Positions 51,965 to 63,431 of a stretch of 64,000 nucleotides of DNA are shown here, piece after piece. The DNA is taken from positions 32,001 through 96,000 of IMG/VR virus record IMGVR_UViG_3300037249_000541; one strand, 5' to 3'. Under the pieces are notes generated by a model, which saw only the letters and a program-made list of their open reading frames with translations, did no database searches and was not told the origin of the DNA. Position 1 is the first letter of the stretch. Each line of letters begins with the position of its first letter. Made by a program: the position numbers and the translations under genes. The DNA is from a virus. Lineage: Duplodnaviria; Caudoviricetes.

Positions 51965-52086
51965 TGCAGCGAGCAGGAGTTGAACCTGCGTTTTCGGATT
52001 GGAATATTCTAACGATGTTTTTGTGAGTAAGTAATCTTACTTAAATGTTATAGTGCCGACGTTCTAACCAACTAAACTATCGCTGT
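51965..52086 (-). ncRNA. Trp-like tRNA with ACAA module inserted in the anticodon arm
   Basis: Intact acceptor, D and T arms; insert AAGTAAG-ATTA-CTTACTC-ACAAAAAC; residual TTCCAA-TCCGA. Confidence 0.7.
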
Positions 52087-52092
52087 GTGTAT

Positions 52093-52149
52093 TGTCACTT
52101 ATTGGCAAAATTAGATAACAATTTGTTTTTTACTAATTTGTAAGTGACA
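52093..52149 (-). ncRNA. ACAA-module RNA
   Basis: TGTCACTT-ACAA-ATTAGTAAAA...TTTTGCCAAT-AAGTGACA. Confidence 0.7.
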
Positions 52150-52218
52150 TCGAAAACATTAATAACCTAAACGTAATAAAAACATAAATCCATGTTACAG
52201 CATCAAGATTACAAATTG

Positions 52219-52291
52219 TGTGTCAAGAGGGAATCGAACCCTCGACCCACGCATTAAAAGTGCGTTGCTCTACCAACTGAGCTATTGACAC
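52219..52291 (-). tRNA. tRNA-Lys(TTT)
   Basis: Perfect cloverleaf; ACGCA-CTTTTAA-TGCGT. Confidence 0.9.
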
Positions 52292-52294
52292 ATA

Positions 52295-52428
52295 AAATGC
52301 AAATACTCCATATAGGTTAACTGTTCCATTCGACACGCCTCTTCCGAACATTCCAGGTCTGAGTCATACGGTTTAACAGCCATGAGATAGAGATAGGTGT
52401 GCGTCATCTCAGGCGTGTATTTGCATTT
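52295..52428 (-). ncRNA. Structured ncRNA candidate
   Basis: 12-bp terminal inverted repeat AAATGCAAATAC/GTATTTGCATTT; internal ACACGCCT/AGGCGTGT. Confidence 0.45.
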
Positions 52429-52440
52429 GTTTTTTTTATT

Positions 52441-52503
52441 TGATACTTATGTCAACGGGTTAGATTAAAAGTCTAATGTTTTTTATTTGTTTTGTAAGTA
52501 TCA
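52441..52503 (-). ncRNA. ACAA-module RNA carrying an isolated Lys(UUU) anticodon stem-loop
   Basis: TGATACTT-ACAAAAC..TTAGA-CTTTTAA-TCTAA..AAGTATCA. Confidence 0.75.
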
Positions 52504-52523
52504 TCGTTCCATGAATGACGCGA

Positions 52524-52886
52524 TTAAACAACCGCGTTTTCTTTCTCTTTGTCAAAACATTTGTTCTGCAATATTTGACGGAAATATTCTTCTGCATCAC
52601 CAAAAGATTCAAAATCTCTTTCGATGCAAGATTTATATTCTTTGCCTACCTTTAATAGTTTAAAGGTTTGGCTTAGTCCATAAATAACACAGTTAGTTAC
52701 CGTAAAATCAAATATTACTTTACCATTATCATCTTTTCGTGAAATAATAGAAATCTTTGCCATCATTAATGGTATGTAATGGCTATGTTCGTATTTCCTG
52801 AAATTCCACGAATTGATTCGTGTTAATGCAGAAATAAATGCTAACTTTAAAAATTGATAACTATTTGTCATTTCCCTTATAATCAT
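52524..52886 (-). CDS. Hypothetical protein
   Basis: 120 aa ORF inside the RNA array. Confidence 0.4.
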   Translation of the reverse strand: MIIREMTNSYQFLKLAFISALTRINSWNFRKYEHSHYIPLMMAKISIISRKDDNGKVIFDFTVTNCVIYGLSQTFKLLKVGKEYKSCIERDFESFGDAEEYFRQILQNKCFDKEKENAVV

Positions 52887-52890
52887 TAAA

Positions 52891-52946
52891 TGTCACTTGG
52901 GGTATTTTGATTAGCAGTCAAATCCATTTTGAATTTGTAAGTGACA
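52891..52946 (-). ncRNA. ACAA-module RNA carrying an isolated Ser(GCU) anticodon stem-loop
   Basis: TGTCACTT-ACAA..TTTGA-CTGCTAA-TCAAA..AAGTGACA. Confidence 0.75.
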
Positions 52947-52954
52947 GTGTTTTG

Positions 52955-53067
52955 CGGACAGGATAGGACTCGAACCTATGACATCGGCATTAACAGTGCA
53001 ATTCGTTAGTTTTGTAAGTAACTAATGCTACTTGTGATACGCGCTCTACCAACTGAGCTACCTGTCC
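52955..53067 (-). ncRNA. tRNA-Asn(GTT) with 40-nt ACAA-module insertion in the anticodon stem
   Basis: CG-[TATCAC-AAGTAGC-ATTA-GTTACTT-ACAAAAC-TAACGAATT]-GCA-CTGTTAA-TGCCG. Confidence 0.78.
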
Positions 53068-53127
53068 ATAATGACGCACCGACCATGGAAGCTTTTACGG
53101 TGCGTCTAAGAGCAACATACTAATATT

Positions 53128-53655
53128 CTAATTCATAGATATTGAAAAATTTGACACTCTGACCATCGTGCTACGTATTCCATCTACATCGTATTCTAAC
53201 ACTTCAATTTTACCATTCTCTGACAATGAACCATCCCAGTTAACCCAATCAACGTTTTTGATTTCATAGGTTTCTCCGTCTTCATCACATTTTAAAGTAA
53301 AACTTGGACGTGTCTTCGCACCTGCAATAAATGATTTCCAGGCCGTTATCAATATAGCTGCTTGGAAATCATTATTTACATCTACCAATGGATAGTATTG
53401 AGTTAAATATTTTGCACATTCGTCATATAGCGAACATTTGGGCTCAAATGCTTTATATCTCAATACACTTATCATCCTGCTGAAGCAAATATCAATAATT
53501 TCATCTATTGTTAATTCTTCATTTAACTTTTGCCTGCCAATAACATATTGTTTGACAAACTCTTTAAGTGTTAAATACGATTTTAACTCTTCACTTAATT
53601 CTTCAATATCTATCTCTTCCTTTTTCTTTGTTTCTTCTGTTTCTTCTTTCTCCAT
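53128..53655 (-). CDS. Hypothetical protein
   Basis: 175 aa ORF inside the RNA array. Confidence 0.5.
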   Translation of the reverse strand: MEKEETEETKKKEEIDIEELSEELKSYLTLKEFVKQYVIGRQKLNEELTIDEIIDICFSRMISVLRYKAFEPKCSLYDECAKYLTQYYPLVDVNNDFQAAILITAWKSFIAGAKTRPSFTLKCDEDGETYEIKNVDWVNWDGSLSENGKIEVLEYDVDGIRSTMVRVSNFSISMN

Positions 53656-53673
53656 TTTGTTATGAAATTTTAT

Positions 53674-53750
53674 TGTCGCTTGTGCTTGCTATCGCGGTTT
53701 TCGGCTGCGAGGTTTGCGTAACTCAATGTGTTATTGTTTTGTAAGCGACA
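53674..53750 (-). ncRNA. ACAA-module RNA (GCTT/AAGC variant)
   Basis: TGTCGCTT-ACAAAAC...TCGC..CCGAAAA..GCGA...AAGCGACA. Confidence 0.7.
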
Positions 53751-53782
53751 TGAACTAAACCGTATATGAGATAAAACAAAAG

Positions 53783-53905
53783 TGGCGGAGGCTGGACTCG
53801 AACCAGCAACTTTCAAATTATCAGTTTGACTATCTTAACCTTAAAAGTATTGTTTTTGTAAGTAACATATGTTACTCAACTTTGTTTTTGTTGATATACT
53901 CCGCC
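53783..53905 (-). ncRNA. tRNA-Ile(GAT) with ACAA module inserted in the D-loop
   Basis: GGCGGAG/CTCCGCC acceptor; TATC..[GAGTAAC-ATAT-GTTACTT-ACAAAAAC]..GGTTAA-GATA; TCAAA-CTGATAA-TTTGA. Confidence 0.78.
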
Positions 53906-53912
53906 ATATAAT

Positions 53913-54014
53913 TGACACTTCTTGTAGATTTTGGATTTGAACCAAAGAACTTATGATTATTAATCATACGCTATAAACCAACTTAGCTAATCTAAGATTA
54001 TTTTGTAAGTGTCA
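53913..54014 (-). ncRNA. ACAA-module RNA enclosing a tRNA body (AAT anticodon)
   Basis: TGACACTT-ACAAAA..TAGAT-D arm-TATGA-TTAATAA-TCATA-T arm-ATCTA..AAGTGTCA. Confidence 0.72.
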
Positions 54015-54021
54015 TTTTTTG

Positions 54022-54098
54022 CGGTGCTTACGGGAATCGAACCCGTCTGAATCTTCTGCGTGACAGGCAGACGGCCACACCAAGCAGCCCCAAGCACC
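54022..54098 (-). tRNA. tRNA-Asp(GTC)
   Basis: TCTGC-CTGTCAC-GCAGA; G discriminator. Confidence 0.82.
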
Positions 54099-54103
54099 AT
54101 AAT

Positions 54104-54197
54104 AGATACTTATTTGCTTTATGGAATCGAACCATATTTTGATGTCTTTCGACATCATAACAGAACCAATTGTAAACAATTGTTTTTGTAAGTATCT
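54104..54197 (-). ncRNA. ACAA-module RNA with GAAA hairpin and T-arm
   Basis: AGATACTT-ACAAAAAC..TGATGTC-GAAA-GACATCA..TATGG-TTCGATT-CCATA..AAGTATCT. Confidence 0.72.
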
Positions 54198-54242
54198 TTC
54201 TATTCACCTAATTACTATGAAAAATTACAAACATTCCAATTG

Positions 54243-54317
54243 TAGTGGGTACGGGATTTGAACCCGTGACTTCAGCGTGAAAGGCTGATGACTTAAACCT
54301 GGCTTGTCGAACCCACC
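54243..54317 (-). tRNA. tRNA-Glu(TTC)
   Basis: TCAGC-CTTTCAC-GCTGA. Confidence 0.87.
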
Positions 54318-54385
54318 ATCCAAAGTATGCGTTATCACAACGCATACAAGATAATTTAAATTAATTATTATTTGACAAAAAAACG

Positions 54386-54495
54386 TGGGCGTGGAAGGAA
54401 TCGAACCTTCTGATTTAATTGATGTGCCATTAATCATATTTTTTATTTGTGTGTATTGTAAGTGACAGAGTATCACTTGTTCTCTGTTCACGCCC
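54386..54495 (-). ncRNA. tRNA-like RNA with ACAA module replacing the D-arm
   Basis: GGGCGTG/CACGCCC acceptor; AAGTGAT-ACTCT-GTCACTT-ACAA; GAAGG-TTCGATT-CCTTC T-arm. Confidence 0.7.
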
Positions 54496-54505
54496 ATATA
54501 AAAAT

Positions 54506-54605
54506 TGATACTTGTTTTATTGCTATTGGAATCGAACCAATGATACAAGGATTTTCAGTCCTTTGCTCTACCTCTGAGCTAAGCTTTTTGGTCTTGTAAG
54601 TATCA
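54506..54605 (-). ncRNA. ACAA-module RNA enclosing a tRNA-Phe(GAA) body with truncated acceptor stem
   Basis: TGATACTT-ACAA..GCTC-AGAGGTA-GAGC, AAGGA-CTGAAAA-TCCTT, ATTGG-TTCGATT-CCAAT..AAGTATCA. Confidence 0.78.
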
Positions 54606-54609
54606 TTTG

Positions 54610-54725
54610 TCGAGGAGGTCAGACTCGAACTGACGACCCTTGGAACCCCACGAATGTGATGTTCTTGTGAGTAACTCAAGTTACTTAATTCTAAACCAAT
54701 GCTCTACCAGCTGAGCTACTCCTCG
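54610..54725 (-). ncRNA. Pro-like tRNA with ACAA module inserted in the anticodon loop
   Basis: CGAGGAG/CTCCTCG acceptor; TTGG..[AAGTAAC-TTGA-GTTACTC-ACAA]..TGGGG..CCAA. Confidence 0.72.
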
Positions 54726-57684: not shown

Positions 57685-58467
57685 TTACTTAGCCGCTTTC
57701 AGTTTCCTAAAATCGACTGTTTTGATTTTTGTTATCACTCTGTTGCCCATTCTGTCGTAGATTGGTACTTCTGGGCGCAATACCAATCCTTCTGCATCAA
57801 GGTTCTTATCTTCGGCTATTGCTGACTTGAAGCCAATAGATACAACATCTATTGCTTCTTCTATTGTCATTTTGCCATAGAATGGAACTGTTGGTGCATT
57901 GAGTTTCTCGGCAATATCTTTCGTCGAATCCCACTCCAAGTACAAGTTATTGACCTTAGTGTCGAATACAATGAATGATACGCCGTTACGAATGTAACCA
58001 CCTCCGCTTTGTATTCCTGCTCCATATCCTTCTCCATAGATTGTCCATTTTGTAGGAATATCATCGATTGTTTCCCACTTATGGTCTTTCCATTCCTCGT
58101 AAGGAATATAAGACTTCAACCCCCAAGCTGCTAATACTTTTTCAGTGGGATAGTTGTCTTCAAGGTGCTTCCTCAATGTTGGTGGAATCTGTGCGTTATC
58201 TGTTTTACCCTTGTAGTCAACTTTGAAATTAACTCCAAGAATCTGACGTATACCTTCTTTGTCTGCTTCTGAATAGACAATCTCGATGGTTACTTCTAAT
58301 CGAATATTTGTGCCATCTATCTTCTCAAAGGCAAGCCAGATGCAATTTTTAAGGTACTCGACAATTTTATCGGAGTAGTCTCCAACAATTATCAAGTCCT
58401 TTGAATCACGCTTAAAGATTGTGTTAATCTTTTGATACGTGTTCTCTGAACGTTTTTGTTTGCTCAT
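57685..58467 (-). CDS. RNA ligase (Rnl2-like nucleotidyltransferase)
   Basis: Motif I EKIDGTN, III YGEGYG, IIIa FIVFD, IV EGLVLR, V KIK. Confidence 0.88.
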   Translation of the reverse strand: MSKQKRSENTYQKINTIFKRDSKDLIIVGDYSDKIVEYLKNCIWLAFEKIDGTNIRLEVTIEIVYSEADKEGIRQILGVNFKVDYKGKTDNAQIPPTLRKHLEDNYPTEKVLAAWGLKSYIPYEEWKDHKWETIDDIPTKWTIYGEGYGAGIQSGGGYIRNGVSFIVFDTKVNNLYLEWDSTKDIAEKLNAPTVPFYGKMTIEEAIDVVSIGFKSAIAEDKNLDAEGLVLRPEVPIYDRMGNRVITKIKTVDFRKLKAAK

Positions 58468-60289: not shown

Positions 60290-60622
60290 ATGGCAAAGCA
60301 AAACGCATCCGTAGCGACTTCGAGCAAGTTCGAGGGCTACGACCTCTCCGAGTACGATGAGATTGACAACGAGATTGTTATGTATTTCCGTAACGACCCC
60401 AAGTTGTGGAAAGAAGCCAGTAATGGCAATGGTATGTGTCGTGTAAAACGTAACACGTTTGTGAACGCAACTGAGACAGCAGGCGTAACATCACCCTACG
60501 TTGTAAAACGCAGAACCTATCAGGGTGACGAAACCATCAGTTCTCGTTGGGAGTTTGCAGACGCTAAACCCTCAGAAGGCGACGAGTTGACCGACATTGC
60601 CGACATCATTGCGGCTCTCTAA
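60290..60622 (+). CDS. Hypothetical acidic protein, first gene after strand switch
   Basis: Protein-like composition only from MAKQNAS (60290); hairpin terminator follows. Confidence 0.6.
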   Translation: MAKQNASVATSSKFEGYDLSEYDEIDNEIVMYFRNDPKLWKEASNGNGMCRVKRNTFVNATETAGVTSPYVVKRRTYQGDETISSRWEFADAKPSEGDELTDIADIIAAL

Positions 60623-61209
60623 TCAATCCTATTGTTCAACCATTTGCAACGGCGAATATAAATATATTCGCTGTTGCTTTATTTTTTATACTTGCATCTA
60701 TATCTATATTTATAGTTGCATTACATATCAACAATCATATCTATGTTTATAGTTGCATTGCAACTGCAAGTCCTATGAATTAGTTTCATAAATTTAATTG
60801 CAAATGCTCTTGCCAATCCAGGCCAGCCAAGTCTGCATATCCATTACAGACACAGGCCAGCCAAGTTCAGCAGATGCGTCTGTAATTGCTGTTGCATATG
60901 CTAATGTTAAATGATGTTAAATATCAGTATTTGATGCAACCTTTTTCAAATATTTTTAGTCTAAGCTTATAGTAATAATCTTACGGGTTATGCGCTTAGA
61001 CTAAGTAGCATATATCGGACTACTTAGAGGCTTTGCGAAAATGGTTGCATTTGCAATTGGGTTTGCAAATAAAAACACTATTGCTGCACGATATGTTACT
61101 GTAGGTGCAGTTGCAGGTGCATATCCTCTTTCCGCTCTAATTTTGATTACCATTAAGGTTTAGCATTTACATTATCAATAAAATACTTCTAATTTTATGC
61201 AAATATTAT

Positions 61210-61217
61210 TACCTTTG
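61210..61217 (+). promoter_or_regulatory. Bacteroidota-type -7 promoter element
   Basis: TACCTTTG ~35 nt upstream of 61253. Confidence 0.45.
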
Positions 61218-61252
61218 CATCTGTATTATTAACTAAATAAAAGAAAGAGAAA

Positions 61253-61522
61253 ATGACATTTTATGACATAAAATATTTGTATAAAGACGATTGTTTGCAG
61301 TGCCAATATATAACTGCCTTGTTGGATAAAAACGAGTCTATAACTGACGAAATTAAAAGAATTAATGCATATTCTGAAGAAGGCCAGCTATTGAAGGAAC
61401 AATATGATATCAATCGTGTGCCATACATAATAGTATTTGATTCTAACGGCAATTATATTGGTGGAACAACAATAAACAGCAAAGATGATTTGAATATCAT
61501 AATTAATAATTATATATTTTAG
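61253..61522 (+). CDS. Thioredoxin/glutaredoxin-like protein
   Basis: CLQC motif and cis-Pro VPYI motif. Confidence 0.7.
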   Translation: MTFYDIKYLYKDDCLQCQYITALLDKNESITDEIKRINAYSEEGQLLKEQYDINRVPYIIVFDSNGNYIGGTTINSKDDLNIIINNYIF

Positions 61523-61661
61523 TGACCTATCACTTATTGCTATCTTTTTTTTCTCATCTTCTTTGTCTCTTTTCTTTTCTTTATCATCTAACCTTTTTTT
61601 TATTTTGATTAACTATATTTATTATATGTTAATCTATTGGCTATTAATTAGCTATTGATTA

Positions 61662-61721
61662 TGCCTATAATGGCAACCCAAAATAATAAGGGTTGGGAAG
61701 TTCAATTCTTCTAATAGGCAC
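61662..61721 (+). ncRNA. D-armless tRNA-like RNA
   Basis: TGCCTAT/ATAGGCA, CAACCC/GGGTTG hairpin, GGAAG-TTCAATT-CTTCT T-arm. Confidence 0.5.
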
Positions 61722-61921
61722 GATTAGCAGTTTTTGTATATTTTACTTATAAAATATACTGTCTTCCAAGTATCGGCATTACGACTTGGCGCAGATTAAC
61801 ATAGAGTAAACTATGCTGTGGTAAAGTAAATCTATCTACGAAAAGTAGAAACATCACAAGCTTTGTGCTTCGGAACAATAATTCATAATGTTGAAAATAA
61901 CATTATTGATGTTGGTGTGCA

Positions 61922-62378
61922 ATTCACCCGTAGATAACAAATGTATTGTACTCAATATAGTGTATGTAAATAGCTCCCAGTTTGCATACACTTAGTCTGG
62001 GACTTAGTTTAATATTTTTATGTGTTGACTACAAAGAAATGCAAATAGCCCAACATTAGACCGCATTCGGTGCGGTTAGGCTAAGTATTGTATGTGCATA
62101 CATCTGGTAGTAGATGGTGCAATATGATGCCTGTTGGGATAAGGGTAACTACTGACCTGACAAACCAGTAGTAGATGTATAAGACTGACAGCCCAGAATT
62201 ATATATCGAGCCGTAATAATAAATGCAGCCATTTTGAGGTGGTAATATAATTGTAGCTCAAATATCCATTATATAGACTTGAAAAATTAGTCCGAGTTAG
62301 TTGCGCTATAAATGTATGACGAATACGTATTAAATGCATTAATGATTTCGCGCAAGGAATCATATTATTACGGTGAAT
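61922..62378 (+). ncRNA. Large structured ncRNA candidate (ROOL-like, copy B)
   Basis: No ORF; closed by ATTCACC(C)GTA/TACGGTGAAT; many internal hairpins; ribozyme directly at its 3' end. Confidence 0.55.
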
Positions 62379-62444
62379 GACATCACATTTCAGCCTTCTC
62401 GTGGCGATGTCGTAAGTAAGTAGAAATACTGAAACTAATGAGAT
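62379..62444 (+). ncRNA. HDV/CPEB3-like self-cleaving ribozyme
   Basis: P1 GACATC/GATGTC, P2 ATTTCA/TGAGAT, P3 GCC/GGC, L3 TTCTCGT, P4 AGTA-GAAA-TACT, J4/2 CTAA. Confidence 0.75.
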
Positions 62445-62475
62445 AAAAAAAATAAACTAATATAAATAAAAACAA

Positions 62476-62883
62476 ATGAAAGCAGAAGAAATGAACAATT
62501 TCTGTATCTTCCATAAAGAGCGTGGATTTATCAAATCCTGCTCTACAAAAGAAGAAGTACAGAATTGGATAGATTTCAAAAAAGAAACATTGAAATCATA
62601 TCCTAACGATGCTAAATTGTCAGAGTTTGTATTAACTTTCAAAGGTTATAACCTTGGTAGCATGGATAGTCCATCAATATTAAGGAGTAATCTTGACAAT
62701 GCGATAAAAAGCATTGTTTGGACTCTTGCAAACAACAACAGATTCTTGTTTAATATAGTTGCGTTTGACTTGCAAGAATCAGATTACGTAATGTTGATGC
62801 GAAGTGAAGAATCTCTTACTGATTTCAGGAAAAGAGCATCTTCGGTATTTAATCATACACCAAGATTAGCAATCGCTGAATAA
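62476..62883 (+). CDS. Hypothetical protein
   Basis: 135 aa ORF with A-rich leader. Confidence 0.55.
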   Translation: MKAEEMNNFCIFHKERGFIKSCSTKEEVQNWIDFKKETLKSYPNDAKLSEFVLTFKGYNLGSMDSPSILRSNLDNAIKSIVWTLANNNRFLFNIVAFDLQESDYVMLMRSEESLTDFRKRASSVFNHTPRLAIAE

Positions 62884-62960
62884 GGCTTAGAAAGCCAGAG
62901 TTAAGCCCAATACTGTGTACTGAATTGGGCAAGAGTAATTAATTTCTAAACACATTTATT

Positions 62961-63356
62961 ATGTCAACGTTAGAAGAACGTTACGAGTATTGTAGGAAGC
63001 ATCAGTTTGAAGCTCCTAAGCGTCCGCCAGAACGTGTCAATTTACTCGTAAACGGAGGCGAAATTGAGATTATGGAAGAAGGTGTACTTGTAGGAAACAA
63101 CGCACCAAAGCAAGGTGTAGTTGTTAAGGTGAAGAACATTGAATCTTTCTCGGACTTTAAAAAATGGTGCGAGGGCAATTCAATTCCTACGTACTATACG
63201 AGACTCGACGAACATCTCAGGCCAGTTGGATTTCAATTCTATGATGGAATGCCATATAATGTAGATGGCTGCCATCAGACAATTCGTCTCGACGTCAATG
63301 TTGAGGCAAATGGCGAGGATATAATGGAGATAGCACTCCGTTATTATTCCATCTGA
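62961..63356 (+). CDS. Hypothetical protein
   Basis: 131 aa ORF. Confidence 0.55.
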   Translation: MSTLEERYEYCRKHQFEAPKRPPERVNLLVNGGEIEIMEEGVLVGNNAPKQGVVVKVKNIESFSDFKKWCEGNSIPTYYTRLDEHLRPVGFQFYDGMPYNVDGCHQTIRLDVNVEANGEDIMEIALRYYSI

Positions 63357-63431
63357 CAACATGCCAAAACAAAGAAAAGGCTAATGTTTTCTTTGTACTA
63401 TCTGATAGTTTTTCTTTAATGCTACACACAA

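Follow-up and report, generated by a model that had tools for sequence, protein, structure and literature searches.

Ribozymes that resemble that of hepatitis delta virus (HDV) are common in gut phages, where a job has been proposed only for the subgroup that trims transfer RNAs (tRNAs), while hundreds of isolated copies are unexplained (PMC10879173). The theta ribozymes of gut Caudoviricetes are minimal HDV-like ribozymes without the P4 helix, most of which lie directly 3' of tRNAs; in addition, Kienbeck et al. (2024) reported 493 'isolated' copies of unknown function, located in non-coding regions and in the sense orientation to the nearest gene, and found that an RNA ligase gene is enriched in phages with HDV-like ribozymes (PMC10879173). 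Previous studies showed that HDV-like ribozymes mostly have a P1 helix of 6 or 7 base pairs (bp), a short, non-zero J1/2 and one or two P1.1 pairs (PMC4908430), and that the CPEB3 ribozyme has a P1.1 consisting of one G-C plus U-U and a J4/2 of 4 nucleotides (nt) that contains the active C (PMC4836649). In R2 and other non-long-terminal-repeat retrotransposons, an HDV-like ribozyme defines the 5' end of the RNA (PMC3774820). Here, we describe a predicted HDV-like ribozyme that is located between a large structured non-coding RNA (ncRNA) and an open reading frame (ORF) in a phage genome. The DNA that was analyzed, referred to as the window, is a stretch of 64,000 nt representing bases 32001-96000 of the 106,381-bp virus record IMGVR_UViG_3300037249_000541, which carries direct terminal repeats at its ends.

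Our results suggest that positions 62379-62444 of the plus strand are very probably a genuine P4-bearing HDV-like (delta-family) ribozyme, and that this ribozyme probably acts as a separator of the ncRNA and the messenger RNA (mRNA) that follows it. Support for this reading rests on a fold that is beyond chance, conserved edges, covariation of P4 and P2, an invariant core and a constant linkage to the ncRNA; we infer catalysis, co-transcription of the unit and both product ends. The ribozyme type is well known, but a full-text search of the literature found no paper on an HDV-like ribozyme located at the end of a large phage ncRNA.

Comparison with described ribozymes and large ncRNAs

The phage element resembles the HDV and CPEB3 ribozymes (RF00094 and RF00622) in the order of its elements, its 3-bp GC-rich P3 and its short P4 hairpin. 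Its L3 loop of 7 nt has U, C and G at the matching places, with U1 and G6 of the loop sitting where HDV has the U20.G25 pair named previously, and the CPEB3 ribozyme likewise combines one G-C with U.U in its P1.1 and has a 4-nt C-N-A-A J4/2 (PMC4836649). The phage element differs from both in that it has no sequence or covariance-model match to the Rfam models, in that its P1 has 6 bp and mostly begins with G1-C rather than G1.U, and in that it resides in a DNA phage of Bacteroidota-type gut communities, as opposed to a viroid-like RNA or a mammalian intron. HDV carries G1.U at its cleavage site, as does the copy of the phage element in one relative (L006), and the L3 of CPEB3 reads UUCACGU, one base off the phage loop. 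The structurally nearest type is the P4-bearing HDV/CPEB3 ribozyme.

An earlier note on this DNA had described the element as HDV-like and had referred to theta ribozymes. The HDV-like assignment stood by every sequence-level measure that we applied, whereas theta is the wrong subfamily, since P4 is present and no tRNA adjoins the element. Theta ribozymes and the phage element are alike in that they occur in gut phages, the hosts of which are probably Bacteroidota, and in that the cut is placed to trim the 3' end of an upstream structured RNA. The present phage also encodes an RNA ligase (PF09414, E 7.5e-16; 57685-58467, minus strand), which differs in family, as NCBIfam models gave a weak match to Rnl2 and no match to DRB0094. 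In contrast to theta ribozymes, the phage element has a covarying P4 of 3-4 bp with a GNRA loop in all copies. Furthermore, members of the tRNA-associated theta subgroup cleave no more than 5 nt from the 3' end of a tRNA, whereas the predicted cut of the phage element is 658 nt downstream of position 61720, where the closest tRNA-like element ends.

As in R2 and related retrotransposons, the ribozyme would cleave a co-transcript at its own 5' edge and remain as the 5' end of the downstream coding RNA. However, those are eukaryotic retroelements in which the upstream product, ribosomal RNA, is incidental, whereas the upstream product in the phage is a conserved structured RNA. This upstream RNA resembles ROOL and GOLLD (PMC5737381) in its length of several hundred nt, its many helices, its phage setting, its proximity to tRNA-like sequence and, in the case of ROOL, its rumen origin. 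It differs from them in that neither of their Rfam models matched the window (at the gathering score, or at E<=10 for 61500-62700) or its relatives (L006, L007 and L009, at E<=0.1); the upstream RNA matched no other Rfam family either. HDV is not mentioned in the paper on ROOL and GOLLD (PMC5737381).

Architecture of the predicted ribozyme

The earlier note had claimed that all elements of the nested double pseudoknot are present, including the J4/2 C within CUAA. This claim was confirmed, as the full order P1-J1/2-P2-P3-L3-P3'-P1'-P1.1-P4-J4/2-P2' could be read in the sequence (Table 1). A covariance model, R1, scored the 66 nt at 96.6 bits (E 2.8e-18). Nested folding of the ribozyme yielded P1, P3 and a P4-like hairpin. 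The minimum free energy (MFE) z-score of the 66 nt alone was an ordinary -0.9, which is expected because nested folding cannot score pseudoknots.

Two other pairings were considered and rejected. A pairing of 62388-62393 with 62429-62434, which is a perfect 6 bp in the window, is broken in five relatives by a U-to-C change at 62389 that strengthens P2. A P1 register shifted one base upstream (U62378.G62412) would take away the partner needed for P1.1.

Table 1. Positions of the predicted ribozyme, its parts and the flanking features in the window; the fourth column numbers the ribozyme from G62379 = 1.
Feature	Position in window	Strand	Ribozyme numbering	Remarks
Predicted HDV-like ribozyme, whole, 66 nt	62379-62444	+		Descriptor match; predicted cut between U62378 and G62379
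P1, 6 bp	62379-62384 with 62406-62411	+	1-6/28-33	Starts at G1 (G62379), with G1-C at the base
J1/2, 2 nt	62385-62386	+	7-8	Second base is C, U or A among relatives
P2, 6 bp, one G.U	62387-62392 with 62439-62444	+	9-14/61-66	Outer pseudoknot; 3' strand ends the conserved block
P3, 3 bp, GCC/GGC	62393-62395 with 62403-62405	+	15-17/25-27	Invariant; joined directly to P1'
L3, 7 nt, UUCUCGU	62396-62402	+	18-24	U at position 1, C at 3, G at 6
P1.1	G62412 with C62398; U62413 opposite U62397	+	G34/C20; U35/U19	One G-C plus U.U
J1/4	62412-62418	+		Invariant in 7/7 sequences
P4 hairpin, 4 bp, GAAA loop	62419-62422 with 62427-62430	+	41-44/49-52	Two-sided pair changes among relatives
J4/2	62431-62438	+	C57 = C62435	Ends C62435-U-A-A; C62435 is the candidate catalytic C; invariant in 7/7
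Large structured ncRNA, would-be 5' cleavage product	61721-62378	+		MFE, conserved modules; provisional 5' end
Conserved ncRNA core, 200 nt	62020-62219	+		Conserved across relatives
Long-range helix	62210-62221 with 62363-62374	+		RNAduplex selects this pairing in the window, L003 and L006
A-rich leader; 135-amino-acid ORF	62445-62475; 62476-62883	+		Would-be 3' cleavage product, which starts with the ribozyme
D-armless tRNA-like element	61663-61720	+		Head of the non-coding tract; read from sequence
Promoter-like motif: pyrimidine tract, CTTTATCATC, TAACC, T-run	61579-61601	+		About 60 nt upstream of the tRNA-like element

Rarity of the fold

We searched with a loose HDV-like descriptor that specified G1, a P1 of 6-7 bp, a J1/2 of 0-6 nt, a P2 of 5-8 bp, a GC-rich 3-bp P3 and an L3 of 6-9 nt including a C, and that further required G to follow P1 and C-N-R-A to precede the 3' strand of P2. 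In the complete 106,381-bp genome, searched on both strands, the ribozyme site was the only match to this descriptor. When the genome was shuffled with its dinucleotides preserved, one set of 40 shuffles gave no site and another set of 200 gave 1, i.e., 1 in 240 overall, and the reversed genome gave 0 matches. In a control modelled on that of Kienbeck et al., exchanging the J4/2 C of the descriptor for A, G or U left 0 sites in this phage group, compared to 4 with C. A chance match to the descriptor in the present AT-rich genome is very unlikely.

A degenerate P3-L3-P1' pattern was also tried and discarded; its 2 viral and 70 genome matches were in unrelated, mostly GC-rich coding DNA, and none of them folds as HDV. 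Searches of phage and virus collections found no relatives of the locus. Model R1 detected no homologue in four Asinivirinae crAss-like genomes, blastn searches of GenBank phages with 60600-63400 and with the 70-nt element found no relatives, and the same was true of IMG/VR viral contigs, whether they were searched with an exact 33-mer and 23-mer of the ncRNA core or with the ORF of 135 amino acids (aa), the Ro60-like protein and the alignment of a 131-aa protein. Among metagenome contigs, a 20-mer of the core had one match (L005), which proved to be due to chance.

Conservation and covariation among relatives

Relatives, which are designated here by L-numbers, are assembled contigs of other samples that were reached via homologues of a 131-aa ORF (identity from 92% down to 56%). 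In these related rumen phages, copies of the ribozyme in the same register were found at L002:324, L003/L004:9903, L006:3642, L007:3901, L009:1759 and L097:2461. The copy at L098:2870 has a ribozyme sequence identical to that of L009, which brings the total, including the window, to 7 distinct sequences in 8 loci. The block that is conserved among these relatives has G1 as its first base and the end of P2 as its last base, with free divergence upstream, and G1 is preceded by an invariant A-U at -2/-1. In L007, where the 131-aa protein next to the ribozyme is down to 56% identity, blastn aligned the ribozyme region and none of the ncRNA.

Across the 7 sequences, 98.6% of helix cells were paired, compared to 15-63% when the 3' partners were slid by 1-3 columns. 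Three pairs of P4 vary on both sides (A-U/G.U/G-C; G-C/U-A; U-A/C-G), and L4 stays GNRA throughout, being GAAA except in L097, where a P4 of 3 bp carries a GAGA loop. P2 was absent from the covariance model, and the alignment was therefore unbiased towards it; nevertheless, 100% of its cells were paired. Its pair 62389/62442 is U.G in the window, C-G in five relatives and U-A in L097, and two further pairs show one-sided, wobble-compatible change. In P1, 3 of the 6 pairs are invariant, and wobbles occur as G2.U in L007 and L097 and as G1.U in L006, the partner of G1 being C in the other six sequences. L3 is constant save for U/C variation at its 4th base and a single U inserted at its end, and J1/4 and J4/2 are the same in all sequences. 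A fixed single-stranded core surrounded by helices that vary is the pattern expected of a catalytic core.

Evidence against the ribozyme and alternative readings

Several observations weigh against the reading given above. P1 contains an A.C mismatch in two variants, at pair 2 in L002 and (as C.A) at pair 5 in L003/L004, and it is without any two-sided compensatory change, while P3 and P1.1 are invariant and hence uninformative on covariation. The comparison comprises only 7 sequences from a single phage clade, for which shuffle statistics of 1-2 of 500 are no more than suggestive, and some of the variation may represent one swapped P4 tip. The mosaic block is also highly conserved downstream of the ribozyme, where the 135-aa ORF is 97% identical, and therefore conservation against L003 alone could reflect recent exchange. 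In at least one lineage, the ribozyme is lost or replaced: L082 and L084 (positions 1-60) keep only the last 27 nt, from P4 onward, and have unrelated sequence where the first 40 nt should be. The descriptor is fallible, as it gave 2 matches in ~1.08 Mb of unrelated, mostly GC-rich DNA. Finally, models of the Rfam HDV family (RF00094, RF00622, RF02682 and the drz families) gave no match at the gathering score or at E<=10, and none in the relatives at E<=0.1. This last result weighs little, because these models are lineage-specific and unable to represent pseudoknots.

With respect to L082 and L084, the 33 nt joined to the ribozyme remnant match nothing else that was examined, and the junction is identical in contigs of two samples.

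The element might instead be a conserved leader that does not cleave, for example a fold that binds a protein or a ligand, or an ncRNA domain, and would then have only its topology in common with HDV. The missing Rfam match, the 6-bp P1 with A.C mismatches tolerated in two variants and the single Watson-Crick pair of P1.1 are consistent with such a leader. However, the residues of the HDV active site are invariant (G1, the U, C and G of L3, the G after P1 and C-U-A-A before P2), a 6-bp P1 and a 1-bp P1.1 are inside the published range of the family (PMC4908430, PMC4836649), and the conserved block begins exactly at the predicted scissile bond. We consider a non-cleaving leader to be quite unlikely.

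We also considered whether the element is a decaying relic, in which case a formerly active ribozyme would be carried in a recombining ncRNA cassette and would now be unneeded. While the P1 mismatches of L002 and L003/L004, the loss of the 5' 40 nt in L082/L084 and the mosaic divergence around the element could be read in this way, the fold is flawless in 5 of the 7 variants, the changes in P2 and P4 preserve pairing, two-sided ones included, and the unpaired core is invariant even though divergence is strong both in the ncRNA domain next to it and in the neighbouring proteins. A relic is highly improbable in our estimate.

The large structured ncRNA upstream of the ribozyme

The ncRNA upstream of the ribozyme is real, as indicated by its strand-specific folding energy, its covarying pairs and the presence of its core in four rumen metatranscriptomes. 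The MFE z-score of 61922-62378 was -5.75 on the plus strand and -1.78 on the minus strand, and no ORF of at least 60 aa was found on the plus strand of 61721-62378. The core is ~90-95% identical across the window, L006, L009 and L098 and near-invariant in comparison with L003, and a diverged homologue in L007 was recognisable by nhmmer. An RNAalifold consensus of five core sequences, L007 included, contained 11 pairs with compensatory change.

The earlier note had assigned the ncRNA to 61922-62378 and had placed the cut at the base of the stem that closes this segment. Both assignments had to be revised. Because conserved modules (61729-61854 in L006, L009 and L097) and the tRNA-like element are present upstream of 61922, the ncRNA is longer than 457 nt, and it would be roughly 650 nt if its start follows the tRNA-like element. 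The proposed closing stem, 61922-61930 with 62370-62378, is found in the MFE structure of the window and has no counterpart in the relatives. It is replaced by the covarying long-range helix (Table 1), in which two compensatory changes (G-C to A-U and U-A to C-G) distinguish the window from L003/L006, and the predicted cut falls beyond the 4 unpaired nt (62375-62378) that follow this helix. The helix encloses a hypervariable domain (62222-62362) that is nearly wholly different in L003, L006, L009 and L097. This domain resembles an insert that can be exchanged while the rest of the RNA stays fixed.

In four rumen metatranscriptomes, each from a different study (X6, X8, X21 and X22; compared over 61200-63000), contigs covered the core. 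Their coverage was limited to 62020-62219, plus 62183-62322 in X6, and none of them covered the ribozyme, the 135-aa ORF or the thioredoxin-like ORF located upstream. These contigs are neutral on cleavage, because the ribozyme is uncovered and contigs cannot show ends. Beyond 62219 they continue into L006-type sequence; most of them appear to derive from a relative, the version of which would be present in the RNA libraries, with DNA carry-over possible. One contig, X8, has 135 extra letters inserted at 62019/62020.

Proposed separation of the ncRNA from the downstream mRNA

The location that the earlier note had given for the ribozyme, at the junction of a large structured ncRNA and the ORF that begins at 62476, was borne out. 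No terminator-like site was found between the ncRNA and this ORF, and therefore one cut would make both the 3' end of the ncRNA and the 5' end of the mRNA. We propose that a single rightward transcript would run from the promoter-like motif (~61580) via the tRNA-like element and the ~650-nt ncRNA into the 62476 ORF. Once transcribed, the 66 nt would fold into the nested double pseudoknot, in which C62435 of J4/2 and a bound Mg2+ would catalyze an attack on the 3' phosphate of U62378 by the 2'-OH of the same nucleotide. This would set the ncRNA free with a 2',3'-cyclic phosphate end, and the ribozyme would remain on the downstream mRNA as a compact 5'-OH cap. These product-end chemistries are predicted because of the established HDV mechanism.

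In all cases, 27-64 nt separate the ribozyme from the ORF downstream of it, with which the rightward gene set begins. The window, L002 and L003 have an ORF of 135 aa at this place, L006 has one of 62 aa and L097 one of 57 aa, and in L007, L009 and L098 it is the 131-aa ORF; whichever ORF follows, the ncRNA core is upstream of the ribozyme in every case. L008 has kept the 131-aa ORF, with neither the ncRNA nor the ribozyme. L087 likewise keeps a homologue of the 131-aa ORF, with no ribozyme detected by descriptor or covariance model; the ncRNA core was not searched for upstream in this contig.

These arrangements bear on the question of which product is under selection. If the ribozyme is real and its selected job is on the mRNA, cleavage would free the mRNA from its structured leader, and the 5'-OH cap would protect it or aid its translation. 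In favor of this possibility, the ribozyme always precedes the first rightward ORF at short distance and stays attached to that product, and R2 elements define their own 5' end by an HDV-like ribozyme (PMC3774820). However, it is the ORF behind the ribozyme that changes (135, 62, 57 or 131 aa) and not the ncRNA core upstream of it, and the 131-aa ORF persists in L008 without ncRNA and ribozyme. Furthermore, the two jobs are not exclusive, as a single cut serves both. This linkage pattern, as read from the contigs, favors the ncRNA end over the mRNA end as the selected job, and we regard a primary role on the mRNA as rather unlikely.

The preferred reading, separation of the ncRNA from the mRNA, would give a concrete and testable role to a P4-bearing copy that is tied to the 3' edge of a large conserved RNA in every relative having the ribozyme, namely to separate a stable ncRNA from the mRNA behind it. 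The ribozyme would also show where a new large phage RNA ends on its 3' side, and this RNA should thereby become much easier to clone, quantify and study.

The tRNA-like element and a candidate promoter

The tRNA-like element with which the non-coding tract opens has an acceptor-like stem, an anticodon-like stem and a T arm with a UUCAAUU loop, and it was called by neither ARAGORN nor Rfam. It is conserved in L003, L009 and L098, and its anticodon-like stem has compensatory changes in L003. This element could set the 5' end of the ncRNA via RNase P/Z. The motif upstream of it, composed of the pyrimidine tract, CTTTATCATC, TAACC and the T-run, is a candidate phage promoter. L003 and L009 have kept it upstream of their own tRNA-like element, and a second copy at ~59833 on the minus strand faces leftward, such that the two copies point away from the strand switch. 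A scan for sigma-70 promoters gave nothing above chance.

Tentatively, the locus might be a self-processing cassette, in which the tRNA-like element would set the 5' end and the ribozyme the 3' end of a discrete, ornate RNA of ~650 nt that belongs to an uncatalogued family and heads an operon of a rumen crAss-like phage; we consider this proposal possible, though on balance doubtful. If it is true, at least some of the hundreds of 'orphan' HDV-like ribozymes of gut phages would serve to form the 3' ends of large phage ncRNAs, and the cyclic-phosphate end might feed the phage RNA ligase and the nearby Ro60-like protein.

Genomic setting and flanking features

The major capsid protein of the phage is ~60% identical to Crassvirales counterparts (family Steigviridae, subfamily Asinivirinae), and the runs that contain the region were nearly all bovine gut metagenomes. 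Genes are directed leftward until ~59700 and rightward from ~59990. From the thioredoxin-like ORF (61253-61522) to the 135-aa ORF, to which no protein family was assigned, the non-coding tract extends over ~950 nt that contain no convincing ORF.

All tRNAs that ARAGORN and Rfam called in the window are on the minus strand. Several Rfam tRNA matches of 113-122 nt in 51965-54725 of this strand, which ARAGORN missed, are tRNA-like genes with large inserts. Upstream of the thioredoxin-like ORF, the stretch 60620-61250 is non-coding and crowded with short repeats containing TTGCA/TGCAA and with inverted repeats; it may function as an origin or as an array to which proteins bind. Finally, the leader of the 131-aa ORF (62879-62963, plus strand) contains a conserved hairpin, CCCAGU...ACUGGG, which is common to L003, L006, L008, L009, L082, L084 and L086, regardless of the sequence upstream.

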